A stretch of 64,000 nucleotides of DNA from Flexilinea sp. (lineage in GTDB: Bacteria > Bacteroidota > Bacteroidia > Bacteroidales > Paludibacteraceae), in the NCBI GenBank assembly GCA_963648205.1, contig CAVJCT010000038.1, forward strand, positions 434 through 64,433, in the 5' to 3' direction. Made by a program: the position numbers and the translations under genes. Shown here piece by piece: positions 41,328 through 59,479 of the stretch; position 1 is the stretch's first letter; each line of letters opens with the position of its first letter. The notes under the pieces were generated by a model. That model saw nothing but the letters and a program-made list of their open reading frames with translations, was not told the origin of the DNA and made no database searches.

Positions 41328-41365
41328 AAAATAAAAATGGAGAACAGCCTCCGACCATTCTCCAT
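41328..41365 (-). terminator. Intrinsic terminator after the 58-aa ORF
   Basis: On the minus-strand RNA an 8-bp stem pairs AUGGAGAA with UUCUCCAU (41337-41344 / 41358-41365), with a 13-nt loop. It is followed by UUUUAUUUU and lies 22 nt after the stop at 41388. Confidence 0.6.
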
Positions 41366-41387
41366 CTATTCTTTCAGGCTTCGATTC

Positions 41388-41564
41388 TTATTTTTCTAAG
41401 AATTGTTTGTTCAAGAAAACATACAAAATGACTCCGGCTACCATCAAGAAACCAGAAGTTAACAATGCTGAGTTTGAACTAAACGCACCGAAATAATACA
41501 ACATAAGGATGACTGCGCCAATGAGGACAACAAACACACCCAAATATCTCATAAAACTGCCCAT
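41388..41564 (-). CDS. Small hydrophobic protein, 58 aa, two predicted TM helices (below the ORF-track cutoff)
   Basis: Hand translation gives MGSFMRYLGVFVVLIGAVILMLYYFGAFSSNSALLTSGFLMVAGVILYVFLNKQFLEK. It has an ATG start, a TAA stop and its own downstream terminator. Confidence 0.5.
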   Translation of the reverse strand: MGSFMRYLGVFVVLIGAVILMLYYFGAFSSNSALLTSGFLMVAGVILYVFLNKQFLEK

Positions 41565-41672: not shown

Positions 41673-44600
41673 TTAGGATTTTATTTGATATTCCAGATTA
41701 CTCGGCACTCCTCCACAATTTCTCGCTATGGAGATTTTCTCTTCGTCAGAGTCCGTTGCAATGATGTGCAAATGTTTTTTCACCAAGGCTGCCAACAACG
41801 TTTTTTCACCATAACCACAGTCGTTTACGGTGATTTCGCCTTCATTTGGCAAGCTGTCCACCCACTCGAGGGTCGACTGTGAATAGAGACTCTTCTTCAC
41901 CGCTTTAGCGACCTCCGCTCCTTTGTAGAGGTACTGATGATAAACGTAATCTTGGAAATATGCTGCTGTCTCGATTTCATCAGAGATTTTGGCATATTGT
42001 TCAATGTAATATTTGTGTACCGCTTGACTTGCCTTGCGTGGGTCTTTTCCTTTTATCATTTCGTTCTCACTCGTGATTGGTGGCAATACTCTGACATCAA
42101 TGCGACCTTTTCTCAACAAAAACTCTTTCTTCGGGAAAACATGGTTGATTCCATGAATCAAAATCGGCACAACGTCCACATTGAATTTCTGCGCTAAGTG
42201 GAACGCTCCCTGATGGAAACGCAAAATCTGACCCGTCTCCGACCTTGTCCCCTCTGGGAAAATGAGGATGGAATAGCCTCTGTCAATGGCAGATTGCAGG
42301 GTTTCAATACTCTCCTCGATACCATTACTGATAGGATAATACTCGGCAAAGCGGATAATGTTACCGTAGAATGGACAGTTCCATACCCATTTGTTGGTGA
42401 GGCATATAATCTTCGGATTAAGCAACAACGTGTACATCAAATCTAAATGAGACTGATGGTTGCAAATCAAGATGGATGGTTTTTCGAAATTGTAATTTCC
42501 ACGGTTCTCTACATGGTATTCAACTCCTGGCATCCACTGTGCAAACTTTCTGAAAATCCACGAAATCATCCGATGGAAGCGCAGTTTATTGGCTTCGCTC
42601 TTTCCTCCTATCACCAACAAGCCGAATCCCGCTACCGTGTATATCAAACTAAAGAAGATGAACACAGAAAAGCTCATAATCGTCTTCAGTAAATTACTGA
42701 GCGTAATCGGCATAATACGGTTCTCTTTTCCATTCATCGTCAACCATTTGAAGAGCAAAGGAGGGAAAAGATAAGTCATCAAGATAACTGAACTCATACC
42801 GACAATTGTTACCTCTGCCAAAGATTTCAACGCTGGATGTTTGGCAAAAATCAATGCACCTATTCCGATGAACATAATCAACGATGAAAGGGCGACCGAT
42901 CGTTTGTACGATGCCAAAACTTTCTTCTTGTGAGCATACTCGTACATCAAACCTTCAGTAACAAAAATGGTGTAATCATCACCCTGACCGAAAATGAACG
43001 TTGCCAAAATGATATTCACAATGTTGAATCGTATATCGAACAAGTCCATCAAGCCCAAAATCCAGAACCACGCCACCGTGAGCGGCACCATCGCAATAAG
43101 TGTCAACTCTATTCTTCCAAAGGAGAACCAAAGGAAGAAAAAGACGATGAAAGCGCAAATAAACAGCACTAAATTGAAGTCAGCCGACAGTCCTTCTAAC
43201 ATCTCATCAAACAAGAACTTGTCATCGAACGAGAAGGCTTTCGGAGTGAGTTGGTTGAGAGCCGTCTGCACTGCCTCCGTGCTATCTTTCTCACAACTCA
43301 ACGTGGTGTAGACTAAACATTTTTCATCTGAATCAAAGACATACAAGTCGGTCAGTGTCTTTTCTATCACGGAGAAATCAGGCACTACCGATTCATCTAT
43401 CGCAGTGTCAATTTTAGCGATGAAAGCGGAGAAAAATTCTTGTGGCAAGCCTAACTCCGAGCCTTCTTTTTCCATCAAGGCTGATGCTTTTTCTTTGTTC
43501 TCCGACCAATAGCGATTCCATCTTTCAACACGCTCTTTTCGCAGATTTCGAGACGGTGAGAAGCAAGAAATACCAGAGACTCTCCTCACATTATATTTTT
43601 CACAGATAGAGTCAAGTGATTGTCTAACAGACTCATACGTTTGCAAAGTCTCCTCTTTGTTCGTTCCTTCGCATACGAAATAGGTCTTTTGCAAGGTATC
43701 GCTCGTCTGCGCAATGAGTTTCTGCAATTCCGTCCGTTGCGCATCCGTCATATAGTTGATTTTGTGCAAATCGGCATCGAAAGAGGTTTTCATACTCAAA
43801 ACCGCAAGCGGAATCGTAAGAATCACCACTGCCAGGACAATGTATTTATTCTCTTCTAAGGCGAAATTGGCAAATTTTGTCAGGAATTTTTCTTCAGTAA
43901 CAGGTCGTTTGAAAAGACTCTTTTTGAAGAGATGGGGCATAAACACCAGCACAAAAATGATGGTTCCAACGAGTAAAACAGCAGCGAAAATACCCATATC
44001 CTCCATTGCGGTGGAGTTGATGAAAGTGATACTGAGAAACGCGCCCACCGTTGTGATATTTCCAATGACCAATGGTGAAGCAATCTCTTTCATCGTTTCC
44101 TCTCGTGTTTTGCCCTCTCGCAAGTGTGCCAAGAAATGCAGAGGATAATTAGCGGCAATTCCAACGATGATAGAACCGATTCCCACTGCAATCACCGAAA
44201 TGTTTTCTCTACAAACTGACAGCAATGCTAATGCCATCAACGCACCGAAAGCAATGGAGAAAAGCAGCAACACGATTGAACGTAGGTCTCTGAAGAAATA
44301 AAGCAACAACGCAATTATCAACACCAAAGCCAAAACAGAAGTTACAATCGTGTCCGTTTTTATTTGGTCTGCATTGCCTATCGAAATGTCCGACGCACCA
44401 ATATGGCTTATACTACAACAATCATTTTTCTCGATGGAATGGGCAGATTTATCAATAGCAGCAATCCACTGCTTATTGAGCATAGTCTCAGTAGAAGGGA
44501 CAAGAGATGTCAGGGTAACAATTGCCTCTTTGCCCTCTTTATCAAACACATAGCCATTATGTTGTTGGAAGGTATTCTTCTGATGCGCATTCTGTAAATT

Positions 44601-45164
44601 TTTCAGAATCGGTGCTGAGATATGCAAAGGGTCATTCACCAACATATTTTGCAGCATTCCACCTGTAGGAGAATAGAGCAAATCACGAGTCCACACCAAT
44701 TCATTCCTTAAACGAGCAGTATCTGCAAGCAATGTGTCCAATCGCTTATAATCGGATTCCTCCATAAAATAAGGCAAATTTTCCACGATGAAATCGGACA
44801 TTTCTGTAATTTCATCTGTCGACACCTTATAGAAAATATCGCTTGTCAGATGGGTCGTATCATTCTTCTTCAGTTCTTCAACAAACTGGTCAACGTACGA
44901 GCAAAGAGTGTCTTGATTGCATTTCGCACTATCCTTCGAGGCAATAAAAACGACAATTTTATTGGTAGTGTTCTGGTGCTGATAGGCATAGACAATGCGA
45001 TCTGTCTTTTCGTTTTTGGGCAGAAACGCACCAATATCCTCCGAAAACCTCGCACATTTAAATACGGCGACGAGCATAATCGCCAAACAGGCAAACAAAA
45101 CCAACTTTGCTTTGCCAGGCGAAGCCTCAAAACTTTTATAGATCTTCAAAAGGAGTTCCTTCAT
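41673..45164 (-). CDS. Fusion protein: MMPL/RND-type exporter + PlsC-type lysophospholipid acyltransferase + truncated class I SAM-methyltransferase-like tail
   Basis: The N-terminal region (about 800 aa) has a 1+5 / 1+5 TM layout with two large loops, which is MMPL-like. Acyltransferase motifs are NHQSHLD (42441-42461) and FPEGTRS (42240-42260). MTase motif I-like VNDCGYGE (41805-41828) lies only 50 aa from the C-terminus. Confidence 0.8.
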   Translation of the reverse strand: MKELLLKIYKSFEASPGKAKLVLFACLAIMLVAVFKCARFSEDIGAFLPKNEKTDRIVYAYQHQNTTNKIVVFIASKDSAKCNQDTLCSYVDQFVEELKKNDTTHLTSDIFYKVSTDEITEMSDFIVENLPYFMEESDYKRLDTLLADTARLRNELVWTRDLLYSPTGGMLQNMLVNDPLHISAPILKNLQNAHQKNTFQQHNGYVFDKEGKEAIVTLTSLVPSTETMLNKQWIAAIDKSAHSIEKNDCCSISHIGASDISIGNADQIKTDTIVTSVLALVLIIALLLYFFRDLRSIVLLLFSIAFGALMALALLSVCRENISVIAVGIGSIIVGIAANYPLHFLAHLREGKTREETMKEIASPLVIGNITTVGAFLSITFINSTAMEDMGIFAAVLLVGTIIFVLVFMPHLFKKSLFKRPVTEEKFLTKFANFALEENKYIVLAVVILTIPLAVLSMKTSFDADLHKINYMTDAQRTELQKLIAQTSDTLQKTYFVCEGTNKEETLQTYESVRQSLDSICEKYNVRRVSGISCFSPSRNLRKERVERWNRYWSENKEKASALMEKEGSELGLPQEFFSAFIAKIDTAIDESVVPDFSVIEKTLTDLYVFDSDEKCLVYTTLSCEKDSTEAVQTALNQLTPKAFSFDDKFLFDEMLEGLSADFNLVLFICAFIVFFFLWFSFGRIELTLIAMVPLTVAWFWILGLMDLFDIRFNIVNIILATFIFGQGDDYTIFVTEGLMYEYAHKKKVLASYKRSVALSSLIMFIGIGALIFAKHPALKSLAEVTIVGMSSVILMTYLFPPLLFKWLTMNGKENRIMPITLSNLLKTIMSFSVFIFFSLIYTVAGFGLLVIGGKSEANKLRFHRMISWIFRKFAQWMPGVEYHVENRGNYNFEKPSILICNHQSHLDLMYTLLLNPKIICLTNKWVWNCPFYGNIIRFAEYYPISNGIEESIETLQSAIDRGYSILIFPEGTRSETGQILRFHQGAFHLAQKFNVDVVPILIHGINHVFPKKEFLLRKGRIDVRVLPPITSENEMIKGKDPRKASQAVHKYYIEQYAKISDEIETAAYFQDYVYHQYLYKGAEVAKAVKKSLYSQSTLEWVDSLPNEGEITVNDCGYGEKTLLAALVKKHLHIIATDSDEEKISIARNCGGVPSNLEYQIKS

Positions 45165-45943
45165 TTCTTCGATTTTTTAATTTTTCTAACTATCCATCGT
45201 ATCGCCATCGAAGGGTAACCATAGACTATCGCAATGAGGCAAAGGAAGGTGTTCAGCACACTGATTCGGAAGAAATCTTTGCCTGGACGGAAATGGGACA
45301 CTCGCTCTTCTTTCGGTGGGTAATAGACGTGTATCGAGATAGGTTTAAGTGGCACTAACTTCCAGGCGCATCTCACCAAAATTTCCAATTCAGCCTCATA
45401 TCTTTTGTTGAAAGGTGTGATGAAACCGATGTTTTTTAAAGGATAAAGGCGATACCCTGTCTGCGTGTCGGGCAGTTTTTGAAGCGTCTGAATATGAAAC
45501 CAGAAATTGGAAAATCGGTTGGCAAAATTGTTTCCCGAAGGCATGTTAGGATTGTCGAACGAGCGACTGCCTATGATAAACGCTTTTGGATTTTCTTTGT
45601 GAGCCTCAACGAAAAGGGGCAAGTCAGAGAATTTATGCTGACCATCAGAATCTAAAGTGATAACGGATTCTATTCCTAATGTCTTCGCCTTTAGGAAACC
45701 CTCTTTCAAGGCATTTCCCTTTCCTTTATTTGGGGAATATGATACCAATTGTAGTTTTTCTTTCCAACGAGATAAAATTTCAGCGGTTTCATCGTTAGAT
45801 CCGTCATTCACCAAGATGACCGTTTCACTATACTGCACTGCCTCTGCGATAACCGATTCTAATGTTTGCGCATTATTGTAAGTCGGTATGAGCAATGCAA
45901 TCTTGTTCTCTTTCAAATAGTTTTTTACATCTTCTGGTGTCAT
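45161..45943 (-). CDS. Family 2 glycosyltransferase with C-terminal TM anchor (ApeJ/ArnC-like)
   Basis: The N-terminal sequence IALLIPTYNNAQTLESV..VNDGSNDET and the DSDGQH (DxD-type) motif are present, with a C-terminal hydrophobic segment. I take the ATG at 45941-45943, because the tracked TTG at 45991 would overlap the upstream gene. The stop overlaps the next start (ATGA). Confidence 0.82.
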   Translation of the reverse strand: MTPEDVKNYLKENKIALLIPTYNNAQTLESVIAEAVQYSETVILVNDGSNDETAEILSRWKEKLQLVSYSPNKGKGNALKEGFLKAKTLGIESVITLDSDGQHKFSDLPLFVEAHKENPKAFIIGSRSFDNPNMPSGNNFANRFSNFWFHIQTLQKLPDTQTGYRLYPLKNIGFITPFNKRYEAELEILVRCAWKLVPLKPISIHVYYPPKEERVSHFRPGKDFFRISVLNTFLCLIAIVYGYPSMAIRWIVRKIKKSKK

Positions 45944-45957
45944 TGACTGTCTCTTTT

Positions 45958-46308
45958 TTATCGTTCTACAAAGATAAGTTTCGCCTTGCAATGATTCTTT
46001 CCTTCTGAGGTAACCGTTGCATTAACTGTCCATTGGACTTCTGACTCTGTCATCTTCAATGTCAGATTATATTCTACGGTTTCATCGGGGAATATAGGAC
46101 TAATAAACTTCATCATTGAAACATTGGAGATTCGCATACGCTTTCCCAAACTATCTTCCACCGCTTTGACAACGATATCAGCCAAGCAAGAACCTGGCAG
46201 AATGGGATAAGTTGGGAAATGGGCAGCAAAAAGGGGATGTTTCGGATCTAACACGAAAGAATAGGCATTCTCTGTTTTTCGAAGATGAAAGAATGAAGGT
46301 TTCGACAT
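45958..46308 (-). CDS. Hotdog-fold 3-hydroxyacyl-ACP dehydratase (ApeI-like)
   Basis: 116 aa with the FabA/FabZ-type active-site motif AHFPTYPILPGSCL. Confidence 0.7.
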   Translation of the reverse strand: MSKPSFFHLRKTENAYSFVLDPKHPLFAAHFPTYPILPGSCLADIVVKAVEDSLGKRMRISNVSMMKFISPIFPDETVEYNLTLKMTESEVQWTVNATVTSEGKNHCKAKLIFVER

Positions 46309-46318
46309 AGTCAGCGAT

Positions 46319-46672
46319 TTATTTAATCATAAAATAAGAGCCTGCCATTATAAAAAAAACGCCAATCCATCGGGAAAATGGAATGGTTTCATGCAGGATA
46401 AAGAAGCCTAACAGCATACCAAAAACGTAACTCAGGCTGGTGAGCGGATAGGCAATCGACAATGGGTAATGTTTCAGAATATACATCCACAAGAGCGTTG
46501 CCGACCCCATGGTGAGTCCGACTAAAGGCCACCACCAGTTGGTGAGTTGCTCACAAATCTGACTCCACGTCCACGAGAAATTTTCTGCTTTCTGCACCGC
46601 CTGTTTCAGGCACAACTGTCCCGACGAGAGCAAAAGCGACTGTAAAGCGGATAGCAAGAGAAGTTTTACCAT
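46319..46672 (-). CDS. Small 4-TM EamA/SMR-like (ArnE/ArnF-like) membrane protein
   Basis: 117 aa with four hydrophobic helices. The W-rich loop and C-terminal pattern resemble a single EamA domain. The start overlaps the upstream KS-like gene by 7 nt. Confidence 0.6.
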   Translation of the reverse strand: MVKLLLLSALQSLLLSSGQLCLKQAVQKAENFSWTWSQICEQLTNWWWPLVGLTMGSATLLWMYILKHYPLSIAYPLTSLSYVFGMLLGFFILHETIPFSRWIGVFFIMAGSYFMIK

Positions 46673-47724
46673 TCTTTGAGGAGCGTTAGTGAATATTCTG
46701 TCTTATTATATTGATTGACCACCAACAAGGCTCGTGGTGTCTCTATCGCTTGTTGATCTGAAGTGAGGAACGCTGGCACATATCTTCTATACAAACACTG
46801 CGCCGCCACATATATTCCCATTGCCGACATCGTAAACGAATCGCCAAATAGGTGCTTGTAAAGGATGATTTTCTCGTTGAAACCGAGCACTTTCAGAATT
46901 CTGTCATACTCCTCTCCATTCTCTTTGTCGCCATTTTTCCCGACCACAACGCCCCCGATATCGTCTCTTATTATTCCAGCCTCTTTTAGCAACAAATTCA
47001 TATCAGAGCGAAGATTATCGTCCGTAGGAAGATGTCTTATGCGAATGTCAACTACCTCGCAAACCGTATGCTCTGTTCTTCTATTTCGCAACAGCAGACT
47101 CACAGCGTTCTCTCCAGAAAACGTGCCTGTACTTCGATTTTGATTATAGTCTTCTATGGCTGGAATCGTCTGCTTCCATCGTCCTATCTGTCGATACATC
47201 TCGAAATAGGCATCGGTCATTTCGTCCACACCATTCACAAGGGCTGATTGGAAATTTCCACATTGCATCTGCATTATCGCATCCATCAAAGCAGAATCAA
47301 AGGAAATGCCACAATGCGAATAGGTCGTATTATAACTGTGGCATTTCAAAGCGATTGCCACCTGCGACCCCACCGTATTATGGGTGGAATGGATGAAATT
47401 AGTTGGCGAGAGGTTTTGCTCTTGATCGTCAATCATCGCATTCAAAAATTTCTCGGTGCTACTGATACAACCCAAACCTGTTCCCGTCAACACTGCATCT
47501 GGAACAAAATCTCCTGCCTCTTTCATACACGAAAGTGCCGATGAAATGGAACATTTTAAAAGCATTCCCATTCTTCGCGAGACATTCGGTACGATGAAAT
47601 TTTTGAAATCGGGAGCGACAAAACGGCTATGGAGCGAATCTGTCCACTGCGGATTCGTCATCCACTCGTCAGAGAGTGGTTGCTGATTGGAAATTTGCTT
47701 TGCACAGTCTATATAATAACCCAT
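46666..47724 (-). CDS. Beta-ketoacyl synthase-like protein (chain-length-factor / ApeC-like)
   Basis: 352 aa with a thiolase-fold-like pattern (GTGLGCISSTEKF, NTVGSQVAIALK). It lacks the HGTGT and GHxxxAAG motifs of active KAS enzymes. Confidence 0.65.
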   Translation of the reverse strand: MGYYIDCAKQISNQQPLSDEWMTNPQWTDSLHSRFVAPDFKNFIVPNVSRRMGMLLKCSISSALSCMKEAGDFVPDAVLTGTGLGCISSTEKFLNAMIDDQEQNLSPTNFIHSTHNTVGSQVAIALKCHSYNTTYSHCGISFDSALMDAIMQMQCGNFQSALVNGVDEMTDAYFEMYRQIGRWKQTIPAIEDYNQNRSTGTFSGENAVSLLLRNRRTEHTVCEVVDIRIRHLPTDDNLRSDMNLLLKEAGIIRDDIGGVVVGKNGDKENGEEYDRILKVLGFNEKIILYKHLFGDSFTMSAMGIYVAAQCLYRRYVPAFLTSDQQAIETPRALLVVNQYNKTEYSLTLLKEW

Positions 47725-47776
47725 AGCCTATTTTATCGTTTTATTGTCAAAACTTTTCTGTCTAAATCATTCAACC

Positions 47777-48970
47777 TTACCTATCAATGTATTTTGAGAA
47801 GATACACGTTGAGTCGTTGCCACCAAAGCCAAACGAGTTGGACATCACATGCATCAAATCAACTTTCCGACACACTTTCTCAGGACATAAGCCTGTCTCT
47901 TCAATCGGATTTTCGAACTCTGGATTGCCAGGAATAAAGCCATACTGAAGAGCGAGAATTGAGAAGACTGCCTCTAAACCACCTGCCGCACTCGTGGTGT
48001 GTCCGGTATATGATTTTGTGGATGAAAACGGAGGAATTTGATCACCAAAGATTTTCTTAATAGCGATACTTTCGTGCAAATCATTGTCTGCCGTTCCAGT
48101 TCCGTGAGCGTTGATATAACTGATATCCGAAGGGTATAATCCAGCAAGATTCAACGCTTTCTTCATAGCCAAACACTCGCCCACACTCTCAGGTGAAGTA
48201 GCAGTCTGGTGATAAGCATCGCATTGGTTAGCGTAGCCAGTCAACTCGCAAATAATCTCTGCGCCTCTCTCTTTTGCCACATCTTCTCGTTCAAGAACGA
48301 TGTACGCTGCGCCCTCGCCCAAGTTCAACCCTGCATTGTCTCTATCGAACGGACGGCATGGTTGATGCTCCAAAATCATTAACGAATTGAAACCATTCAA
48401 GTGAAATTTGCTGATGGATTCGGATCCACCGACAATGGCAGCCTTCACTCGTCTATTTTTGATGAGTTCTGCACCCAAGATAATTGAATTGGCAGCAGAA
48501 GAGCAAGCGGTTGATATGGTCGTTACGAAATCGAAATGTCCGAAAGCACGACTCGCATAGTCGGTTCCGTAGCCACAATCATGCGCCTTAATGTATTCTG
48601 TATGTTTACCTTCAAAGAAATCTCGGTAGTACTGCTCGCTCATTTCCATTCCGCCCACTGTCGTTCCACTGACGAAAGCAGTTCGAACAGCGTCCGTGAG
48701 TTTCGACCTTTGAATGGCTTCTTTTAAGGCGATGATTGCCAAGAGCGGATTGCGAGTAACCAACGCATTCGAAGAGACACCTGCTAATTTTCGCAGTTGC
48801 GCTTCGTCCATTTTGATCTCCCCACACGGGAGTTCCCGATGGCACGTGTCAAGATAGGCAATCTTATCGATTGCCTTCCGACCCTCTAAGAGTGCTTTTT
48901 TATTAGCCTCAACGCCGACGCCCAAAGAGGAGATGATTCCGTATCCTGTAACTACGATTCTTTCGAGCAT
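47777..48970 (-). CDS. Beta-ketoacyl-ACP synthase, KAS I/II type (ApeO/FabF-like)
   Basis: Active-site Cys in TISTACSSAANS. His motifs are NAHGTGT and GHTTSAAG. Ends with the C-terminal motif SNSFGFGGNDS. Confidence 0.88.
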   Translation of the reverse strand: MLERIVVTGYGIISSLGVGVEANKKALLEGRKAIDKIAYLDTCHRELPCGEIKMDEAQLRKLAGVSSNALVTRNPLLAIIALKEAIQRSKLTDAVRTAFVSGTTVGGMEMSEQYYRDFFEGKHTEYIKAHDCGYGTDYASRAFGHFDFVTTISTACSSAANSIILGAELIKNRRVKAAIVGGSESISKFHLNGFNSLMILEHQPCRPFDRDNAGLNLGEGAAYIVLEREDVAKERGAEIICELTGYANQCDAYHQTATSPESVGECLAMKKALNLAGLYPSDISYINAHGTGTADNDLHESIAIKKIFGDQIPPFSSTKSYTGHTTSAAGGLEAVFSILALQYGFIPGNPEFENPIEETGLCPEKVCRKVDLMHVMSNSFGFGGNDSTCIFSKYIDR

Positions 48971-48974
48971 TCTT

Positions 48975-49232
48975 TTATTTTGTTCTGTTCTTTGTGATGT
49001 ACTCTGCCATCACACGAATAGATTTGAAAATATCTTTTCCCTCTTGCGCATTTTTCAATTTGATGCCATAGTTTTTTTCTAACAAGACAATCAATTCCAA
49101 TGCGTCAATAGAGTCTAAGCCTAAACCTTCTCCAAACAAAGGTGCGTTTTCATCAATATCAGCAGGAGTCATCTCTTCCAAATTCAACACTTCGATGAGT
49201 TCCTTCTTTAATTCAAGTATAAGTTCGTCCAT
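48975..49232 (-). CDS. Acyl carrier protein
   Basis: Phosphopantetheine attachment motif LGLDSIDALEL. I take the ATG at 49230-49232, because the tracked start at 49265 is TTG. Confidence 0.88.
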   Translation of the reverse strand: MDELILELKKELIEVLNLEEMTPADIDENAPLFGEGLGLDSIDALELIVLLEKNYGIKLKNAQEGKDIFKSIRVMAEYITKNRTK

Positions 49233-49320
49233 TTCTATAGATTTTTTTGTTTTTCTGTTTTTCAATGCTATTTCTACAAAAATAAGAAAATTATTTGCTT
49301 ACAATCGTAGAGTTTGCGAT

Positions 49321-49944
49321 TCAATAGAATTTTTCAATATTTTCTTTCGTCCACAAGGCGATTCCCTCATTCTCCTCTTCTACTGAGACATGGAACAACA
49401 GGGTGTCGCAAACACCATCTAAATAGTTCACCCAACCAATCAAAAGATTGTTGATTTGCTTTTCGGACAACAAGCTGGTCAGACCAACCTGACACATCTC
49501 CTCCACATCAAACTTCGGGAGGATATACGAGCAACTCTCACCTTTCAGCTTATGGCGAATGGCGATTTCACCCGTAACGATGTTCGAGAGCGTATAGACG
49601 AAAACCGACGGACTGGGATAATAGTTGTCAGCGTCTTTTATTGTCTCTTGATAGGCTTTATCATTGTCCAACGACGAACAGTTGTTGAAGACGATAACCG
49701 ACCAATCAGGATGACCATCTTCTTCAACCTGCAAATCACTTGCTCGCACCGCAAACTCGGATGCCAAGAAGCCAGCCTTGCAAAGATTATCCATTTTGAA
49801 AAACTTCGGATATTGAATGCCTAAATGCCGGTAGATACTGGTCAGCCAGCCTTCGTTTCGTGTAATTTCAATCTTATTCTGATTAATCATCACACTGTCC
49901 GACGTGATTCTCACCGCAGTTTGTATATAAGGCGTTTTGCTCAT
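49321..49944 (-). CDS. Short 3-oxoacyl-ACP-synthase-like protein (KS N-terminal-like, about 200 aa)
   Basis: 207 aa. Contains MDNLCKAGFLASEFA and PSPSVFVYTLSNIVTGEIAIRHKLKGE segments, which resemble truncated KS-like proteins found in aryl-polyene-type clusters. Confidence 0.55.
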   Translation of the reverse strand: MSKTPYIQTAVRITSDSVMINQNKIEITRNEGWLTSIYRHLGIQYPKFFKMDNLCKAGFLASEFAVRASDLQVEEDGHPDWSVIVFNNCSSLDNDKAYQETIKDADNYYPSPSVFVYTLSNIVTGEIAIRHKLKGESCSYILPKFDVEEMCQVGLTSLLSEKQINNLLIGWVNYLDGVCDTLLFHVSVEEENEGIALWTKENIEKFY

Positions 49945-49959
49945 CTTTCCAACATTCTG

Positions 49960-50601
49960 TTATTTCTCGAACGCAATTTCTATGGTTTTATATCCTAATG
50001 CGGCAAACATACTGCGGAACTGATTCTCTGCATTTTCTTTTGCTGCTGTGATATTTTCCTCGGTCAAAGCGTCGATTTTCATCTTCTTCTTGGCATTCTG
50101 ATACATTCCCTCTTTCAATGTTGCCGACACTTTTCCTGACTCATAGAAAACCTTCGTTTTCGTATCGTCAATAATGTTTTTATCCAACAAACTGATTTTA
50201 GGGAGTTGTATTTCGGCAGTATCACCGTGGCAGTTGAGCCAACTTTTCTTGACATCTTTCATATCGATACCTAAGCGAGCCGTACCCGTGTAGATACGAG
50301 TTGACTGAGTGCTTGAGAAAGTTTTCTTCAATGTCGTGTCTACCACCTCTTCCAACTGCACCGTGAGGAACTCCCACTCTGCCACCTCTTGAATAGAGGT
50401 AATTGTGGTTGGAGTCTCTTGAATCTTCTCTTCTTTCACTTCCTCCTTGCCTCTACAATTATGCATGAAGAGATAGAGGACAAGACAAACAGCCAAGAGA
50501 ATCCAAAACAAAGGAGTCTTCATCATCTCAACCGTGAGTTTCGTAGACCCTTGCGAACTCTTTCGTGTCCTCGTCGTAGTATTATTTCTTTTTGTTGCCA
50601 T
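49960..50601 (-). CDS. DUF4230-like protein with N-terminal TM anchor
   Basis: Basic N-terminus followed by a TM (LFWILLAVCLVLYLF). DUF4230-like core: ARLGIDMKDV...AEIQLPKISLL...AAKENAENQFRSMFAALGYK. Confidence 0.6.
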   Translation of the reverse strand: MATKRNNTTTRTRKSSQGSTKLTVEMMKTPLFWILLAVCLVLYLFMHNCRGKEEVKEEKIQETPTTITSIQEVAEWEFLTVQLEEVVDTTLKKTFSSTQSTRIYTGTARLGIDMKDVKKSWLNCHGDTAEIQLPKISLLDKNIIDDTKTKVFYESGKVSATLKEGMYQNAKKKMKIDALTEENITAAKENAENQFRSMFAALGYKTIEIAFEK

Positions 50602-50627
50602 ATTTTTCAGTATTTTCCAAGTCTACA

Positions 50628-51305
50628 TTAATTCTTTTTCGGAAGAGAAATCAAACCATGAATAGTCTGCTCTGATTTCTTATTTTCTTCGATTTTATCG
50701 GGAAATTTCAATGTTATATTGGCAGCCTTATAACCTGCAGCCTCCAAGATGGGGAGCAACACATTATATGCTGAGACACGGCTCTTGTCGATGATATCAC
50801 TTTCAGCCATACTCTGCAAAATACTTGCTCGTCCCTGCTGAATAAACGACTCTTTCTCTTCATTAGTGAAATCAGATCGATTCCATGAAACGAATGCCTT
50901 CTCATTTTCGTAATCTATCTTCGAAGAGGTCATTTCGATATTAGGCTGTGGCAAGGTGATGGTTATCTTTTCTCCCTCAATTTTCACGTTTTCATCGGAG
51001 AAATTAGAGAAATCGATATAGGCTTTCACCACGGCATCGACTGGAATCAAGATCTTGCGATCACCAGGAATTGGAATGGAGAACTCCTCGTTGAACACAG
51101 AGCCTTTCAACGCATTGGCATCCTCGTAGGTCAAAATCTTATGCACGTTATACTGCGTGGTGTAGAGTTTTGAGCAACTCGAAATTTGCTGTGTCAGCGT
51201 TGGCTTTTCTTGCGTTGCTTCTTCCTCATTTGAGTTGTTACCACAACTTGCGAAAAGAGCGACAAGCGACAAAGATGTTAATATCGTGTTTCTTAATATT
51301 TTCAT
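50628..51305 (-). CDS. DUF4230-like lipoprotein
   Basis: Lipobox LVALFASCG. DUF4230-like core: VVKAYIDFSNF...KITITLPQPNIEM...SRVSAYNVLLPILEAAGYK. Paralogous in pattern to the adjacent gene. Confidence 0.6.
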   Translation of the reverse strand: MKILRNTILTSLSLVALFASCGNNSNEEEATQEKPTLTQQISSCSKLYTTQYNVHKILTYEDANALKGSVFNEEFSIPIPGDRKILIPVDAVVKAYIDFSNFSDENVKIEGEKITITLPQPNIEMTSSKIDYENEKAFVSWNRSDFTNEEKESFIQQGRASILQSMAESDIIDKSRVSAYNVLLPILEAAGYKAANITLKFPDKIEENKKSEQTIHGLISLPKKN

Positions 51306-51340
51306 ATAACTATCTTTTATTCAACACATTAATATTCATT

Positions 51341-52492
51341 TTATCCATAGATGATAGCAGCATTGCTACCTCCGAATCCAGAAATGATTTTCAAAAAGGC
51401 ATCTCCTTGAGTTGAATCCGTAAGGGCTTGTGCCACCGTGATTTCCTTGACCGTACCTGCTTCGTCAAATCCGTAGGTAGGCAAGATTTTTTTCTCTTGC
51501 AAGGCATAGCCCGAGAGAATGCACTCTAAAACGCCAGCCGCACCCAATGTATGTCCGAAATACCCCTTCAAACTGTTAGTTGGCACATTTTGAAAATCAC
51601 TTCGGAATATCGCCCACGACTCCATATCGTCGTTGTAGAGAGTGGCTGTTCCATGGGCGTTGATGAACGAAAGCTTTCTTCCTTCAACATTCTTATTTCT
51701 TAAAGCCGACTGAATGGAAAGGAACAAGCCCTCACCCGTTCGCGACGGACCAGAAATGTGGTTGGCGTCGTTTCGGTTGCCCGTTCCTAAGATCGACAGG
51801 CAACCTGCTATCGGTTCTAATGATTTCTCAAGAACAATCGTAGCAGCCGCCTCGCCTAAGTTCAATCCGCAACGATTTTTATCGAAAGGTTTGCAACGCT
51901 GTGGAGACAAAGCCTTAAACGACTGAAAGCCAGAGACTACAAATTTACTCAACATCTCCGCTCCCACAACCACTGCGTATTTATATTTATCGCTTCTCTT
52001 CAGTTTTTCATCAGCGTATATCTGCGCAGCCACTCCCGAAGTGCAAGCATTGCTCACCACCATCACCTGATTAGGATTTCCGAAAAACTGACCAATCAGC
52101 TGAGCAGAAACGCTCATATCAACCCTATTTTTGTCGAATCCATCGGGATTTTCCAGCAAATCAATATTACCTTTCGTCGTCGACAACACAAAGAAAAGAT
52201 CGGGACGGCTCGGGTCTATATTCAACTTCTCCAATGCGCAAAATGCCGATAAAATCGCTATTTTTTCAAAATAAGTGTAACGAATCTTCTTATCGGGCAA
52301 TGTCAAGAACAAAGAATCAATACGTTCCCGGTCCAACAGCGACCCAAAGAAAGGTTCAGGCAAGCCAAACGTGTGCTCGTGCAATTTCGCCATGCTCTCC
52401 CCTCGTTTCACCGCCTCGTAGACATCCTTCGAGGAATGTCCCAACGGAGAAACAATGTTATCACCAATTTTATATGAACGATATTCTGACAT
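51341..52492 (-). CDS. Beta-ketoacyl-ACP synthase (ApeR-like)
   Basis: Active-site Cys in VSNACTSGVAA. His motifs are NAHGTAT and GHTLGAAG. I take the ATG at 52490-52492, because the tracked 52498 start is TTG. Confidence 0.85.
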   Translation of the reverse strand: MSEYRSYKIGDNIVSPLGHSSKDVYEAVKRGESMAKLHEHTFGLPEPFFGSLLDRERIDSLFLTLPDKKIRYTYFEKIAILSAFCALEKLNIDPSRPDLFFVLSTTKGNIDLLENPDGFDKNRVDMSVSAQLIGQFFGNPNQVMVVSNACTSGVAAQIYADEKLKRSDKYKYAVVVGAEMLSKFVVSGFQSFKALSPQRCKPFDKNRCGLNLGEAAATIVLEKSLEPIAGCLSILGTGNRNDANHISGPSRTGEGLFLSIQSALRNKNVEGRKLSFINAHGTATLYNDDMESWAIFRSDFQNVPTNSLKGYFGHTLGAAGVLECILSGYALQEKKILPTYGFDEAGTVKEITVAQALTDSTQGDAFLKIISGFGGSNAAIIYG

Positions 52493-52498
52493 TTTCAA

Positions 52499-52957
52499 CT
52501 AATTTTCTTTATTGACATTTCCGATTGGCAAATCAGATAATACGACTTGCAACTCACCTTGAGCGATGATTTCATCACCAACTTTTGCCACAACATTATA
52601 CGAACTCATATTGTCAAACACGAACGTCTCCTCGGCTTCGGTCGTCAACTTCTCTCCGACTCTCACCCTTCGGCGAATCTCGCACTGTTTCACCGCGCCT
52701 ACCAAACCGATATTGATTTTATTGCTCTTCCGAATATGAATCTCTACGAATCCGATATGCGCTGCGCAAGTCTGAGCCAAGTTCTCCAACAATCCGCTCT
52801 CCAACAGTTCGCCGTCATCCACCGTTACAATTTCGTCCGTAACCGTGAGTTCAGTTGTGCATTTTTTCTCGCTTCCATCGCAGATTTTATCCACCAAGAT
52901 GAAAGGTCGCTGCTGAGGCAGATATCGGCTGATTGGGAGAATTTTTATCGATTCCAT
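52499..52957 (-). CDS. Hotdog-fold dehydratase-like protein (ApeP-like)
   Basis: The N-terminal sequence LPISRYLPQQRPFILVDKI resembles the FabZ LPHRYPFLLVD motif, on a hotdog-sized protein. I take the ATG at 52955-52957, because the tracked start is TTG. Confidence 0.6.
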   Translation of the reverse strand: MESIKILPISRYLPQQRPFILVDKICDGSEKKCTTELTVTDEIVTVDDGELLESGLLENLAQTCAAHIGFVEIHIRKSNKINIGLVGAVKQCEIRRRVRVGEKLTTEAEETFVFDNMSSYNVVAKVGDEIIAQGELQVVLSDLPIGNVNKEN

Positions 52958-52975
52958 CTGGATTTTCAATTTCCG

Positions 52976-54070
52976 TTATTTTTTAACCTTACAAGCAATC
53001 AGACTATGACCTTGACCTAAGCCGTCGTGAATCGTCTCAATCTCCAATCCTGCGTTTTCAATGCAACGGAACAAATCTTCGGAATAGAACATCTTGCTGT
53101 TTCCGTTTGCCATCACCGTGAAATAGATGCTAGTTTGAGCCAAACAGTAGGATGCTGTCTCGAATCGCTGACGATCCCAGAGAGTCTCCATAATATAAAG
53201 ACGAGCGTTTTCATCCATACTTTTAGAGGCTCTCGAAAGGATACTCTCCACTTGCACCTCACTGAAACAGTCTAAGAATTGACTCATCCAGATCAAGTCA
53301 AATCCCTTTGGAAAAGCAGTGTTAGGATCCAATAGATTACCAGGAATGCCATGGATTCTATCTTTTCCAGCGACATTCTTAACCGCCTCTTTCATCAATC
53401 CCAACTGCTGAGGAAGATCCATAATAGAAACCTCCACATCCTCTTTGAAATTGACACACTCCGTAGCAAATCGTCCTGTGTTTCCACCCACATCCAACAA
53501 AGTTTTTGCTCCATCCTTGAAAATGATATTCAAGGCTTGCTCGAATGAACAATCGGAATAGTAATGGTCGAAACCAAACCAACTTTTCTGCGCATCAGCA
53601 GGCAAACTTGACAAACCCTCATAGATGGTTGGCCAGTTGCCAAACACTTTCAATCCAGCAGGTTTGCCCTCCTTGATAGCCTCTTCCAAATGAAACAACC
53701 CCAAATAGTTGACATCATGATTGAAATCCAAGTCAACTCTCGTCATTTCATTGTTCAGTAAAAACCAACCTGTTTTAGAAATGAAGAATTTGTCCTCCTT
53801 CAAAAGGATGGTTCCAATCGTGAGGGAAGACTCTAACAGACATTGAATGCCGTAGTGAGACAAGCCAGATTTTTCTTCGATTTCATCGAAAGAAAGTCCG
53901 TTTTTGTTCTCGTCCAACATCTTCAATATTCCAAATTTCAGCATCAAGCGTGAAACCTGAAACACTACCGGTCCGAAAGCAATTTCCTCTGCTCTACGCT
54001 GTGCTTCGAGTGCAGAGAATCGTTCCTTCCCATACATCTCTTTTTGTGGAGAATTTAATTTTATCTTCAT
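52976..54070 (-). CDS. Class I SAM-dependent O-methyltransferase (ApeB-like)
   Basis: Motif I LLDVGGNTGRFA preceded by a dimerisation/wHTH-like N-terminal domain. 364 aa. Confidence 0.8.
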   Translation of the reverse strand: MKIKLNSPQKEMYGKERFSALEAQRRAEEIAFGPVVFQVSRLMLKFGILKMLDENKNGLSFDEIEEKSGLSHYGIQCLLESSLTIGTILLKEDKFFISKTGWFLLNNEMTRVDLDFNHDVNYLGLFHLEEAIKEGKPAGLKVFGNWPTIYEGLSSLPADAQKSWFGFDHYYSDCSFEQALNIIFKDGAKTLLDVGGNTGRFATECVNFKEDVEVSIMDLPQQLGLMKEAVKNVAGKDRIHGIPGNLLDPNTAFPKGFDLIWMSQFLDCFSEVQVESILSRASKSMDENARLYIMETLWDRQRFETASYCLAQTSIYFTVMANGNSKMFYSEDLFRCIENAGLEIETIHDGLGQGHSLIACKVKK

Positions 54071-54086
54071 ATTTCAATAACGGTTT

Positions 54087-55025
54087 TTACTCGTTTTTAT
54101 CAGCATTTTCATTCCAGAAAGGGAAGAAATTGAACCACTGTGTCGGGTATTTCTTCACCACCTCCTGCAACACATTCACATAATCGTGCGTCATTGCCTC
54201 CGCTTTCTTAGTCGAATTAGGCAATTCCGAATGAGTATCAATCGGTTGCTCGTGGATTTTGTAGGTTGTTCCGTGTTCTTTCATAATAAAAAGAGACACC
54301 ACAGGAACATCCAACTGTGCAGCCAATCGGAATGTGCCAATCGGAAAATTAGCGGTTCCATCCAAGAAATCACAAGTAACACTCTTCGGACTGCCGAAAA
54401 GTCGATCGCTCGGAATCACCACGATTTCGCCCTTTTCAATCACCTCTTTAATAGTGAAAAGATGAGACATATCTGGCATCACAGGAATCAAGTTGATGTT
54501 CGATGACCCGAAAGCATCGTCTCTACGTTTCTGGAAAGCAGCACGTTCCGACATTGAGATAATCGCATTGATTCGCTTTTTCTGAACTGGATAACACAAA
54601 CCCGAAAGTTCCAAATTGCCAACATGCGCCCCCACGATAAAGAATCCCTTCTCTTGATTCATCATCGGTGGAATATAATTGCTTTCACCGACAATTTTGA
54701 ATTGTTTTCTGTTTCCTGCCAACAAAGCAAATTTATCTAACACCACCTGTCCGAACAGAATATGGTTTCTGAAAGTCGCCCATGCCGCTTTCATCGGAGA
54801 ATAATGATGTCTTTCTCTGAAATATTGGTAAATAGCCTGACGACCTTTTTTACCAAACAAGAGATAAAACGGAATCGTCAAGTAGAGAATCGGGTACAAA
54901 ACACGAACATTAGCGAAGCCCAAGAACCAAAGCAAAAAACTTTGGCCAAACGCTCCACCGCCCGTCTTGCCGTCCCATTTCGGGCTATCCGAGCCATTCA
55001 CTTTATTTTGTTGAGTCTCTTCCAT
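54087..55025 (-). CDS. LpxL/HtrB-type lysophospholipid acyltransferase (ApeD-like)
   Basis: 312 aa with an N-terminal hydrophobic anchor (FLLWFLGFANVRVLYPILYLTIPFYLLF). Overall resemblance to lipid A late acyltransferase family members. Confidence 0.6.
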   Translation of the reverse strand: MEETQQNKVNGSDSPKWDGKTGGGAFGQSFLLWFLGFANVRVLYPILYLTIPFYLLFGKKGRQAIYQYFRERHHYSPMKAAWATFRNHILFGQVVLDKFALLAGNRKQFKIVGESNYIPPMMNQEKGFFIVGAHVGNLELSGLCYPVQKKRINAIISMSERAAFQKRRDDAFGSSNINLIPVMPDMSHLFTIKEVIEKGEIVVIPSDRLFGSPKSVTCDFLDGTANFPIGTFRLAAQLDVPVVSLFIMKEHGTTYKIHEQPIDTHSELPNSTKKAEAMTHDYVNVLQEVVKKYPTQWFNFFPFWNENADKNE

Positions 55026-55483
55026 TATATTTCAGCGTCAGGGGTTAACAAATCACGAATCTCGCCGAAAGCACGCTCTAAATGGCTCATCTCTTTTGAG
55101 AGGAAGACATAAAAATCGTGCCATTGCTCCTTCTTATGAATATCCAAGCCCTCCTGCATACGATAAATGCGAGACACCATTGTACCACAAGGCTTTTCAA
55201 AGTCGTGCTGCCAAACAGCATCCGCAAAATACTGGTCGAACACAACCCGATATTTCTGCACGATGCCAAACATCTCTTCCCGGCGACGTTGGTCATTAAA
55301 TTCCAAAATCACGTATGCGCCATCACGAGTAGCGTCAAATTTCATCTCCACACCTTTGATTTTCGTGTTGTAAAGAATCCACTTCTTTTTACGGTACTTA
55401 AACCTTGGCAGATTCTCGCAAAAAGCGTCAAATCCGTTCCAAAAATCTCGTTTCAGCTGTTTTGCTTCCTCTCTCGTATACAT
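55025..55483 (-). CDS. DUF4268-like protein
   Basis: The N-terminus MYTREEAKQLKRDFWNGF matches the family pattern I recall for DUF4268. Its stop overlaps the next gene's start (TAATG at 55023-55027). Confidence 0.6.
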   Translation of the reverse strand: MYTREEAKQLKRDFWNGFDAFCENLPRFKYRKKKWILYNTKIKGVEMKFDATRDGAYVILEFNDQRRREEMFGIVQKYRVVFDQYFADAVWQHDFEKPCGTMVSRIYRMQEGLDIHKKEQWHDFYVFLSKEMSHLERAFGEIRDLLTPDAEI

Positions 55484-55488
55484 TGTAA

Positions 55489-55504
55489 TGGCGTTTTACT
55501 TGCA
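55489..55504 (+). promoter_or_regulatory. Sigma-54-type -24/-12 element candidate TGGCGTTTTACTTGCA
   Basis: TGGC and TTGC have the canonical GG-N10-GC spacing. It lies on the + strand, 118 nt upstream of the first FKBP gene. Chance occurrence cannot be excluded. Confidence 0.2.
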
Positions 55505-55510
55505 AAAATA
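55503..55510 (-). promoter_or_regulatory. Candidate -7 box TATTTTTG (minus strand) heading the 15-gene operon
   Basis: The reverse complement of CAAAAATA. Lies 20 nt upstream of the ATG at 55483. Confidence 0.4.
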
Positions 55511-55621: not shown

Positions 55622-56209
55622 ATGGATAAAATTAGTTACGCGTTGGGGCTTTCGATGGCATCGAACCTTCAAAACTCTGGTTTCAAAAATGTTGATTTGG
55701 AAAGTTTCATGAACGGAATGAACGCTGTTTTTCACCGTTTTCAACCAGAGATGAGTCTCGACGAGGCACACCAGATTTTGAGCCAACATTTCGCTAAAAT
55801 GCAAGCAGAGGCAGACGAAGCCAACAAAGAGGCTGGAAAGAAATTCTTGGAAGATAACGCTAAGAAGGAAGGCATCAAAGTTACGAAGAGCGGTTTGCAA
55901 TATGAAGTTTTGACGGAAGGTAAGGGCGACAAGCCTAAAGAGACTGACACCGTTCGTTGCCACTACGAGGGTAGATTGATCGACGGCAATGTTTTCGACA
56001 GCTCATTTAGAAGAAACCAACCTGCCGATTTCCCTGTCAATCAGGTGATTCCAGGATGGGTAGAGGCTTTGCAGTTGATGCCTGTAGGTTCAAAGTGGAG
56101 ATTGTACATTCCTTCAGACTTGGCATACGGAGAGCATGGTGCAGGCGACATTATCGGTCCAAACATGACTTTGATCTTCGACGTTGAGTTGTTGGAGATT
56201 TTGAAATAA
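55622..56209 (+). CDS. FKBP-type peptidyl-prolyl cis-trans isomerase (no signal peptide, FklB-like)
   Basis: Mip-like N-terminal helix followed by an FKBP domain (GRLIDGNVFDSS, VIPGWVEALQLMPVGSKWRLYIP, LIFDVELL). Confidence 0.9.
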   Translation: MDKISYALGLSMASNLQNSGFKNVDLESFMNGMNAVFHRFQPEMSLDEAHQILSQHFAKMQAEADEANKEAGKKFLEDNAKKEGIKVTKSGLQYEVLTEGKGDKPKETDTVRCHYEGRLIDGNVFDSSFRRNQPADFPVNQVIPGWVEALQLMPVGSKWRLYIPSDLAYGEHGAGDIIGPNMTLIFDVELLEILK

Positions 56210-56235
56210 TTCGAGAGATATTAAACATTTACAAT

Positions 56236-57012: not shown

Positions 57013-57053
57013 TTATTTCACGAAAGAAAAAACAATAAAATAAACAAAAAGAA

Positions 57054-59456: not shown

Positions 59457-59479
59457 AAAAAGAGCTATTTTAATGTTCT

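Follow-up and report, generated by a model that had tools for sequence, protein, structure and literature searches.

A reduced flexirubin/aryl-polyene-type operon that recurs in a Paludibacteraceae-like clade of Bacteroidales, with the FlxY module detached in the window

The window considered here is a stretch of 64 kb of contig CAVJCT010000038.1 (assembly GCA_963648205.1, Flexilinea sp., Paludibacteraceae in GTDB), and its main subject is an operon with the features of the flexirubin/aryl-polyene (APE) family. Fifteen co-directional open reading frames (ORFs) of the minus strand tile positions 41673-55483 and are numbered g1 (5'-most) to g15 (3'-most). With ATG starts taken at 52957 (g4), 52492 (g5), 49232 (g9) and 45943 (g14), the intergenic gaps measure 4-88 nt, and three gene pairs overlap, namely g1/g2 (TAATG, 55023-55027), g11/g12 (7 nt, 46666-46672) and g14/g15 (ATGA, 45161-45164). 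This is in every respect the layout described in an earlier note on this DNA, made by a model from the letters alone and referred to below as the original prediction. Domains were called by Pfam and NCBIfam profile searches, with the equivalog cutoffs given for each model, and orthology with Ape proteins was assessed by BLASTP of the operon proteins against the annotated ApeA-R proteins of Escherichia coli CFT073. The genes of the operon are the following:

55025-55483, minus strand: g1, DUF4268 protein (PF14088, 77 bits)
54087-55025, minus strand: g2, LpxL-type acyltransferase (PF03279, 49 bits; BLASTP match to ApeJ, E=7e-24 over 300 residues)
52976-54070, minus strand: g3, S-adenosylmethionine (SAM) methyltransferase of the FlxJ/ApeB family (NF053543 FlxJ, 601.7 bits against a cutoff of 560)
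52499-52957, minus strand: g4, FabZ-like hotdog protein lacking the HFP histidine motif (FabZ NF000582, E=7.5e-12, below cutoff)
51341-52492, minus strand: g5, ketosynthase with the cysteine (NACTSG) and both histidine motifs (PF00109 and PF02801)
50628-51305, minus strand: g6, DUF4230 lipoprotein (PF14014, 116 bits)
49960-50601, minus strand: g7, DUF4230 protein with an N-terminal transmembrane anchor (PF14014, 105 bits)
49321-49944, minus strand: g8, 207-aa protein resembling the N-terminal part of ketosynthases (fabF residues 66-156, E=2e-6)
48975-49232, minus strand: g9, ApeE-like acyl carrier protein (ACP) with the motif DSID (NF006617, 90 bits against a cutoff of 70)
47777-48970, minus strand: g10, ApeO-like elongating ketosynthase with a Cys-His-His triad (PF00109 and PF02801; ApeO, 35% identity, E=6e-55)
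46666-47724, minus strand: g11, ApeC-like chain-length factor (PF13723, 42.3 bits against a cutoff of 25; ApeC, E=4e-7)
46319-46672, minus strand: g12, ArnE/EamA-like protein with four transmembrane segments (ArnE NF011625, E=9e-17, below cutoff)
45958-46308, minus strand: g13, ApeI-like dehydratase with the motif HFPxxPxxPG (PF22818, 29.5 bits against a cutoff of 28.5; ApeI, 34% identity)
45161-45943, minus strand: g14, GT2 glycosyltransferase (PF00535; matches of the polyprenyl-phosphate glycosyltransferase type; ApeJ, E=2e-29)
41673-45164, minus strand: g15, fusion of an MMPL/RND transporter and a PlsC-type acyltransferase, 1163 aa (PF03176 and PF01553)

The operon belongs to the flexirubin/APE family, as the original prediction had proposed, because g3 passes the FlxJ equivalog cutoff and because BLASTP recovers ApeB, ApeC, ApeD, ApeE, ApeI, ApeJ, ApeM and ApeO. 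Indeed (i) g3 shares 45% identity with ApeB (E=5e-114) and is predicted to methylate the aryl ring, (ii) the ApeO/ApeC-type pair of ketosynthase and chain-length factor is present (g10/g11), (iii) of the ApeI/ApeP dehydratase pair, ApeI is represented by g13, above the PF22818 cutoff, and ApeP has a candidate counterpart in g4, and (iv) the lipid-anchoring ApeD and ApeJ have counterparts in the C-terminal region of g15 and in g14 and g2, respectively. For g4, the ApeP-like family PF22817 is listed in the precomputed annotation, the direct scan gives a weak E=0.1, and BLAST yields no match to ApeP of CFT073; g4 is probably the ApeP-like partner of g13. The ketosynthase g5 shares 36% identity with ApeO and with ApeR alike, so that BLASTP does not discriminate between the two, and g9, the only ACP of the cluster, is 49% identical to ApeE against 38% to ApeF. 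The list of Ape counterparts given in the original prediction (B, C, D, E, I, J, M, O, P and R) therefore holds for the eight proteins recovered by BLASTP; for ApeP there is a weak profile match and no BLAST match, and ApeR is not separated from ApeO in the case of g5. The domains that it had named (an O-methyltransferase, an LpxL-type acyltransferase, a GT2, one ACP, two hotdog proteins and two cysteine-containing ketosynthases) are recovered by Pfam and NCBIfam, and the motifs TACSS in g10, NACTSG in g5, DSID in g9 and HFPTYPILPG in g13 are all present.

The protein g11 carries no histidine motifs, its Cys138 is not conserved in the family consensus, and its homologues bear the NCBI name "beta-ketoacyl synthase chain length factor"; its status as a chain-length factor is based on PF13723, on the ApeC match and on the family consensus, a BLASTP comparison of g10 with g11 being uninformative in this regard. 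ApeJ is a single protein combining a GT2 and an acyltransferase, and both g14 and g2 match it, which suggests that ApeJ is split here into a putative GT2 part (g14) and a putative acyltransferase part (g2). Conversely, the N-terminal region of g15 matches ApeM (E=2e-15) and its C-terminal region ApeD (E=1e-15), so that by homology ApeM and ApeD are fused in one protein. The MMPL exporter of the original prediction is thus present, but g15 is more than an exporter, a PlsC-type acyltransferase being fused to it. A C-terminal tail of about 110 aa in g15 has no significant domain; its identification as a SAM methyltransferase is unsupported (PF13847, E=0.18). The ArnE-like g12 is a candidate subunit of a lipid-linked sugar flippase.

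The ketosynthase, dehydratase and ACP genes share generic similarity with FabF, FabZ and ACP, and could on that count be taken for the housekeeping type II fatty acid synthase (FAS) of the organism, an objection foreseen in the original prediction and addressed here by profile search. The housekeeping equivalogs are not reached (fabF 284 against a cutoff of 494, fabZ 45 and 30 against 113, acpP TIGR00517 32 against 70), and with scores this far below the cutoffs the genes are not considered to be housekeeping FAS genes. Moreover, neighbouring genes code for FlxJ, an MMPL protein, a chain-length factor and an ApeI-like dehydratase, and their products have orthologues in the Ape set; there is next to no chance that they form the housekeeping system.

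Three further genes of relevance are located outside the operon, at the other end of the window:

63714-64000, minus strand: BD-FAE-family esterase gene, 3' part only (truncated at the end of the window), found by tblastn, 5' of FlxY
62352-63656, minus strand: FlxY-type aromatic-acid coenzyme A (CoA) ligase (NF053551, 708.5 bits against a cutoff of 520)
61200-62324, minus strand: 374-aa PlsC-like acyltransferase (PF01553, 24.9 bits), 66% identical to the gene that follows FlxY in locus L084

The esterase gene is complete (246 aa) in the same-species contig L090. An exact-match lookup of the FlxY protein returned no record, and that of the 374-aa acyltransferase returned same-species contigs. 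In L084, L094, L014, L016 and L057, the cluster terminates on its 3' side with the esterase-FlxY-acyltransferase trio, and in L084, L085 and L094 the FlxY orthologue comes directly after the esterase that follows g15. In the window the trio is displaced to 6 kb upstream of g1 (the FlxY gene itself being 7 kb from the operon), and between g1 and the trio lie a pectate-lyase-like gene, a gene coding for a protein with a C-terminal tail of the type IX secretion system (T9SS), an AsnC regulator and three FKBP genes. The original prediction had found no ApeH-type enzyme for the activation of an aryl acid inside the operon; no ApeH homologue is indeed encoded there, but the FlxY aryl-acid CoA ligase is encoded elsewhere in the window. 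As both FlxY and the ring methyltransferase have been retained, it can be argued that the product keeps an aryl head group and that an aryl starter is likely still in use.

For comparison, g11 has 552 homologues, and an alignment-based scan of GTDB species genomes provided 80 Bacteroidota loci, which were compared by tblastn of the fifteen proteins, clustering of the remaining ORFs and profile annotation of the cluster representatives. The canonical order in Bacteroidales begins with the FlxA tyrosine ammonia-lyase (TAL), the FlxB ketoreductase, a third ketosynthase, a second ACP, g2, g3 and g4, continues with a 4HBT thioesterase, g5, g8, g9, g10, g11, g12 and LolA2 (sometimes with a LolB2-like gene), and ends with g13, g14, g15, a CrtD-like FAD oxidoreductase, a B12 radical-SAM protein, an unannotated protein of about 120 aa (C9), the BD-FAE esterase, FlxY and the PlsC-like acyltransferase. 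The CrtD-like and radical-SAM genes are usual but not invariable in these clusters, and the canonical accessory genes score at or near equivalog level (FlxA 777 bits, FlxB 407 bits, LolA2 169 bits). The core order g4-g5-g8-g9-g10-g11 is conserved in the 80 loci, including those of Flavobacterium, Mucilaginibacter and Cytophagaceae, which also hold a deacetylase, an ABC transporter and genes judged by eye from their sequence to be DarA/DarB-like. The latter (C13 and C14) occur in 7 loci, so that most Bacteroidales loci are devoid of them; LolA2 is present in 49 of the 80 and LolB2-like genes in 15 + 6.

These frequencies define what is ordinary in the operon. The gene g8 is found in 72 loci, g12 in 58 and the MMPL-acyltransferase fusion in 42, and all three are for this reason canonical. 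The short ketosynthase-like g8 is a regular member of the cluster and not a replacement, and the fusion, first considered an oddity, is usual, fusions of 1160-1230 aa being the norm in Bacteroidales loci. Among the genes that the original prediction had listed as occurring "instead" of expected ones, the DUF4268 gene and the DUF4230 pair are indeed clade-specific, but the EamA/ArnE-like g12 is canonical.

In a neighbour-joining tree of concatenated g5, g10 and g11, the window, L082/L083, L002, L084/85 and L094 (the last three being metagenome-assembled genomes (MAGs) of Paludibacteraceae) form a monophyletic group nested among complete clusters. The members of this clade lack the TAL, the ketoreductase, the thioesterase, LolA2, LolB2, the CrtD-like gene and the radical-SAM gene, and the sub-lineage comprising the window, L082 and L002 has in addition lost the second ACP and the third ketosynthase. 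The gains of the clade are the DUF4268 gene at the 5' end, found in 1 of the 80 GTDB loci and additionally in L082-85 and L094, and the DUF4230 pair between g5 and g8; no other genes are specific to it. Compared with L082/L083, the proteins of the window are mostly 81-95% identical (range 69-100%), with an identical order of the fifteen genes and the same FKBP and LrgAB flanks. Judged by its protein neighbours, the organism is Paludibacteraceae-like, and the best GTDB representative shares 49% identity.

The absence of a ketoreductase, thioesterase, TAL and LolA gene, which the original prediction had noted for the operon, extends to the whole window: tblastn with representatives of every canonical accessory family found no TAL (six representatives of FlxA used), ketoreductase, thioesterase, LolA2 or DarA/B there. 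None of these genes was found either in the roughly 8 kb beyond the end of the window in contig L090, where an M20 peptidase, a topoisomerase, a Flg_new_2 protein and RuvB are encoded. FlxB is also absent from the L002, L082, L084 and L094 loci, and BLASTP with the CFT073 set gave no homologue of ApeA, G, H, K, L, N or Q in the operon. The description of the gene set as reduced and atypical is thus borne out against the 80 loci.

The pathway could nevertheless be complete but split, with FlxA, FlxB, the thioesterase and LolA2/LolB2 at another locus and an ordinary flexirubin-like lipid as product, without any chemical reduction. The displacement of the FlxY trio indicates that cluster fragmentation does happen in this lineage, and the examined part of the genome was limited to about 74 kb. 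Against this, four divergent loci of the reduced clade are devoid of these genes within +/-10 kb; in complete clusters the same genes lie in between core genes (g4 and g5 flank the thioesterase, g12 and g13 flank LolA2), so that several independent excisions and re-insertions would be needed; and LolA2/LolB2 have been reported inside flexirubin-like loci only (PMC11885536). A split pathway is therefore regarded as unlikely, without being far-fetched.

The extent of the losses (TAL, ketoreductase, thioesterase, LolA2/B2, oxidoreductase and radical SAM), together with the insertion of unrelated genes (the DUF4230 pair and DUF4268), might also be expected of a decaying, non-functional remnant of a flexirubin cluster. 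However, all fifteen ORFs are intact and carry their catalytic motifs, and the ratio of nonsynonymous to synonymous divergence (dN/dS) relative to L082 is 0.013-0.14 for all fifteen genes, similar to that of the flanking FKBP and LrgB genes, a value to be read qualitatively only, as dS is saturated (>1). Furthermore, at least four lineages at species level share the architecture (the window, L082, L002 and L084/L094), with the gene order kept at protein identities of about 50-80%. The intact genes and the low dN/dS indicate that the operon is maintained by selection and is not decaying, and a non-functional remnant is highly improbable.

With regard to known systems, the operon and the flexirubin clusters of Chitinophaga pinensis (flxA-flxY, MIBiG BGC0000839) and Flavobacterium johnsoniae (Fjoh_1073-1110 region, BGC0000838) have in common FlxJ and FlxY at equivalog level, the GT2, the acyltransferases and the MMPL exporter, as well as the core order of hotdog protein, ketosynthase, short ketosynthase-like protein, ACP, ketosynthase and chain-length factor, seen in the Flavobacterium, Mucilaginibacter and Cytophagaceae loci. 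Unlike these clusters, the window contains no FlxA, FlxB, thioesterase or LolA2/LolB2, nor the DarA/DarB dialkylresorcinol genes (for the ester partner of true flexirubin), a polysaccharide deacetylase or an ABC transporter, and it has a single ACP, a detached FlxY trio and the inserted DUF4230 pair and DUF4268 gene. The canonical "arylpolyene" clusters of Bacteroidales (Bacteroides, Phocaeicola, Prevotella, Tannerella, Odoribacteraceae) have the order of g2-g5 and g8-g15 in common with the operon, all of them present as orthologues, the ArnE-like gene and the fusion of MMPL and acyltransferase among them, and the trio forms their 3' end. These clusters differ in having the TAL, ketoreductase, third ketosynthase and second ACP upstream, the thioesterase between g4 and g5, LolA2 (with or without LolB2) between g12 and g13, and the CrtD-like, B12-radical-SAM and C9 genes after g15, and in lacking DUF4230 and DUF4268. 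With the ape cluster of E. coli CFT073 and Xenorhabdus doucetiae, which produces aryl polyene lipids, the operon shares homologues of ApeB (45%), ApeE (49%), ApeO/R (35-36%), ApeC, ApeI, ApeJ, ApeM and ApeD, from which it departs by the division of ApeJ (g14, g2), the fusion of ApeM and ApeD (g15) and the single ACP. Activation of the starter also differs, the PaaK-like CoA ligase FlxY of the window and the acyl-ACP synthetase ApeH of the ape cluster showing no detectable similarity. ApeQ, a ketoreductase, is one of the core genes required in a survey of APE clusters (bioRxiv 10.1101/2020.12.19.423268), and no homologue of it is found in the operon or the window by BLASTP or tblastn.

The operon and the displaced esterase-FlxY-acyltransferase trio are considered, with moderate confidence, to be a functional, lineage-specific and reduced derivative of the flexirubin-type APE lipid pathway of Bacteroidota. 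By analogy with characterised systems, the product would be expected to be an aryl polyene esterified to a sugar-phosphate-glycerolipid anchor. In the steps proposed below, the identities of the genes come from the tool results and the order of the steps is modelled on the systems of E. coli, Xenorhabdus and Chitinophaga. In Chitinophaga, initiation involves the TAL and then FlxY, whose substrates in vitro include cinnamate, 3-phenylpropionate, and indole-propionate or indole-acrylate (PMC3992019). In the window, FlxY would activate an aromatic acid, p-coumarate or a related phenylpropanoid, to the aryl-CoA; with no TAL nearby, this acid would be scavenged or made elsewhere, and the breadth of FlxY suggests that a pathway lacking TAL could use aromatic acids abundant in the gut and rumen. 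The single ACP g9 would be primed by ketosynthase g5 and the chain extended with malonyl units by the g10/g11 pair. Reduction of the beta-keto groups would be carried out in trans by a ketoreductase encoded elsewhere, probably the housekeeping FabG, after which each unit could be dehydrated to the polyene by the hotdog pair formed by g13, with its catalytic histidine motif, and g4, without it. FlxJ (g3) would methylate the ring.

For the later steps, in the model for Xenorhabdus and E. coli, ApeJ esterifies the ApeE-bound aryl polyene to a GalNAc-phosphate-glycerolipid and ApeD installs the sn-2 chain (bioRxiv 10.1101/2020.12.19.423268; PMC8253772). Here, the GT2 g14 would build the sugar-phosphate-lipid anchor, and the polyene would be attached to it by g2, the acyltransferase domain of g15 and the 374-aa acyltransferase, as ApeJ and ApeD do. 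The ArnE-like g12 and the MMPL domain of g15 could then move the product out of the inner membrane. The loss of LolA2/LolB2, the thioesterase, the CrtD-like oxidoreductase and the radical-SAM protein suggests a simpler product, or a different trafficking, than in canonical clusters. The loss of the thioesterase is plausible, given that an ApeK deletion in E. coli leaves partial pigmentation (PMC8253772). LolA2/LolB2 have been proposed to be pigment traffickers and reportedly do not occur outside flexirubin-like loci (PMC11885536), so that their loss would imply an altered localisation or an alternative carrier.

Several points weigh against this reading. A ketoreductase is essential for polyene chemistry; it is absent from all the reduced-clade loci seen, and FabG acting in trans is an assumption. 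There is no TAL, so that the identity of the starter rests on inference; the inspected part of the genome amounts to 64-74 kb, and the "missing" genes might lie elsewhere; the ApeP assignment of g4 is weak; the saturation of dS limits the argument from selection; and the literature gives no observed product for any Bacteroidales cluster of this type.

A further alternative concerns the chemistry of the chain. Instead of an aryl polyene, the operon could make a fatty acyl chain without an aryl group, conjugated or hydroxylated and comparable to the C26:5 conjugated fatty acid in the aryl polyene lipids (APELs) of Xenorhabdus; this chain would be built into an envelope glycolipid or phospholipid. 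In the Xenorhabdus APELs an aryl polyene occurs together with a conjugated fatty acid, the two being produced by related enzymes on separate ACPs (bioRxiv 10.1101/2020.12.19.423268). The absence of a TAL, the presence of one ACP only and the fact that the window, L082 and L002 no longer have a second ACP and a third ketosynthase would be in line with a non-aryl chain. Conversely, the aryl-specific FlxJ/ApeB methyltransferase and the FlxY ligase are kept at equivalog-level scores and under strong constraint, and the remaining ACP is closest to ApeE, the APE-carrying ACP. A non-aryl product is thus rather improbable.

The DUF4230 pair is one of the clade-specific insertions of the operon. The N-terminus of g6 is of the lipoprotein type, with Cys21 nearly invariant in the alignment. 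Homologues of g6 and g7 with at least about 50% identity are located inside reduced clusters (L094), and remoter DUF4230 homologues (about 43-48% identical) form stand-alone tandem pairs beside dnaG, beside a Na/Ala symporter or elsewhere. The members of these pairs match g6 and g7 one-to-one, g7 being the counterpart of the second member; the idea that the pair is intrinsically linked to the cluster was therefore rejected, and the stand-alone modules point to a general envelope function. Such pairs were seen in L086 (7001-8250), L088 (7001-8229) and L093 (10001-11231), and are often directly 3' of dnaG in other Bacteroidales; dnaG is not in the 64-kb window. A LolA-like fold was considered for DUF4230. 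A confident AlphaFold2 model of g6 (mean predicted local-distance difference test score, pLDDT, 86) has no Foldseek match in the PDB at E <= 0.001; its best matches (BPIFA1, a juvenile-hormone-binding protein and LptE) have E >= 0.2 and template-modelling scores below 0.2, and no similarity is claimed. No functional data on DUF4230 were found in the literature.

It is tempting, but doubtful and speculative, to suppose both that the DUF4230 pair (g6 as a lipoprotein, g7 as an anchored protein) replaced the lost LolA2/LolB2 in a non-orthologous manner and that the TAL-less pathway is primed via FlxY by scavenged plant or gut aromatics, for example p-coumarate or phenylpropionate. If so, trans-envelope trafficking of a polyene glycolipid would be the first function for the widespread DUF4230 family, and the pigment-lipid would depend on diet. 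A possible link of DUF4230 to envelope lipid handling is a lead.

Genome mining has already revealed flexirubin-like "arylpolyene" clusters in Bacteroidales of the gut (PMC12940132; PMC9248904; bioRxiv 10.64898/2026.08.08.743306), and NCBI already has curated Flx models; the present finding overturns no current view. What is new is a conserved, selected and minimal architecture in a Paludibacteraceae-like clade of uncultured Bacteroidales from the gut or rumen, with DUF4230 and DUF4268 inside the operon and a detached FlxY module. In Bacteroidales of the gut and rumen, flexirubin-like clusters rank with the most prevalent biosynthetic gene clusters, and the literature searches yielded neither an experimentally characterised product for such a cluster of Bacteroidales nor a reported product from an anaerobic member. 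The reduced clade amounts to a natural "minimal" cluster under purifying selection, in which the TAL, the ketoreductase, the thioesterase, LolA2/B2, the third ketosynthase, the second ACP, the CrtD-like oxidoreductase and the radical-SAM gene are dispensable in cis, and in which FlxJ, FlxY, the ketosynthase/chain-length factor, the dehydratase pair, the ACP, the GT2, the acyltransferases, the ArnE-like protein and the MMPL protein are always kept. This list could be of use for heterologous-expression constructs and for refining antiSMASH and NCBIfam rules.

Putative signals of the operon and a small ORF next to it are the following:

55503-55510, minus strand: TATTTTTG box, a promoter box of the Bacteroidota -7 type, 19 nt 5' of the ATG of g1
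49277-49284, minus strand: second TATTTTTG box, within the 88-nt gap preceding the ACP gene g9
41388-41564, minus strand: small ORF of 58 aa with two transmembrane segments, between g15 and the hairpin
41335-41367, minus strand: strong terminator-like hairpin with a 15-bp stem and a T run, 3' of g15 and of the 58-aa ORF

The first box, already reported in the original prediction, is present at its position, which alone makes it a suggestive candidate promoter, the motif TAnnTTTG not being enriched across the window (43 matches against 45 expected). The second is possibly an internal promoter for the genes of the ACP, the ketosynthase and the chain-length factor and for those downstream. The hairpin is likely the operon terminator; apart from it, scans of the window for sigma-70 promoters and terminators remained at background level, and Rfam and tRNA scans gave no matches. 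The 58-aa ORF is about 93% identical in L082 and is absent in L084, where the esterase comes next after g15.

The flanks of the operon comprise the following genes:

55622-57794, plus strand: three tandem genes coding for FKBP-type peptidyl-prolyl isomerases, divergent from the operon
58718-61039, minus strand: 519-aa pectate-lyase-like beta-helix protein and a small protein bearing a C-terminal sorting domain of the T9SS type
39115-40188, plus strand: Fic/DOC protein with a winged-helix C-terminus
40237-41275, minus strand: LrgA/LrgB pair

The FKBP/operon junction is kept in every reduced-clade locus seen (L082, L084, L090 and L094), and the Fic/DOC gene and the LrgA/LrgB pair lie directly 3' of the operon. 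The pectate-lyase-like and T9SS genes fit a gut or rumen organism that degrades plant polysaccharides.

Other departures from the canonical order were seen among the compared loci. In the Prevotella/Prevotellaceae MAGs L034, L039, L047 and L015, genes that look DarA/DarB-like by eye are accompanied by BtrH_N/DUF4872 proteins, and the place of the MMPL fusion is taken by a fusion of GT2 and acyltransferase, about 480 aa long; some rumen Prevotella may make true dialkylresorcinol esters. In five Paludibacteraceae MAGs from the rumen (L004, L006, L037, L005 and L009), tblastn gave no matches to g2-g5, and g8-g14 are preceded by five unrelated genes (C25-C29). In L004, a protein of 833 aa is encoded after g14.

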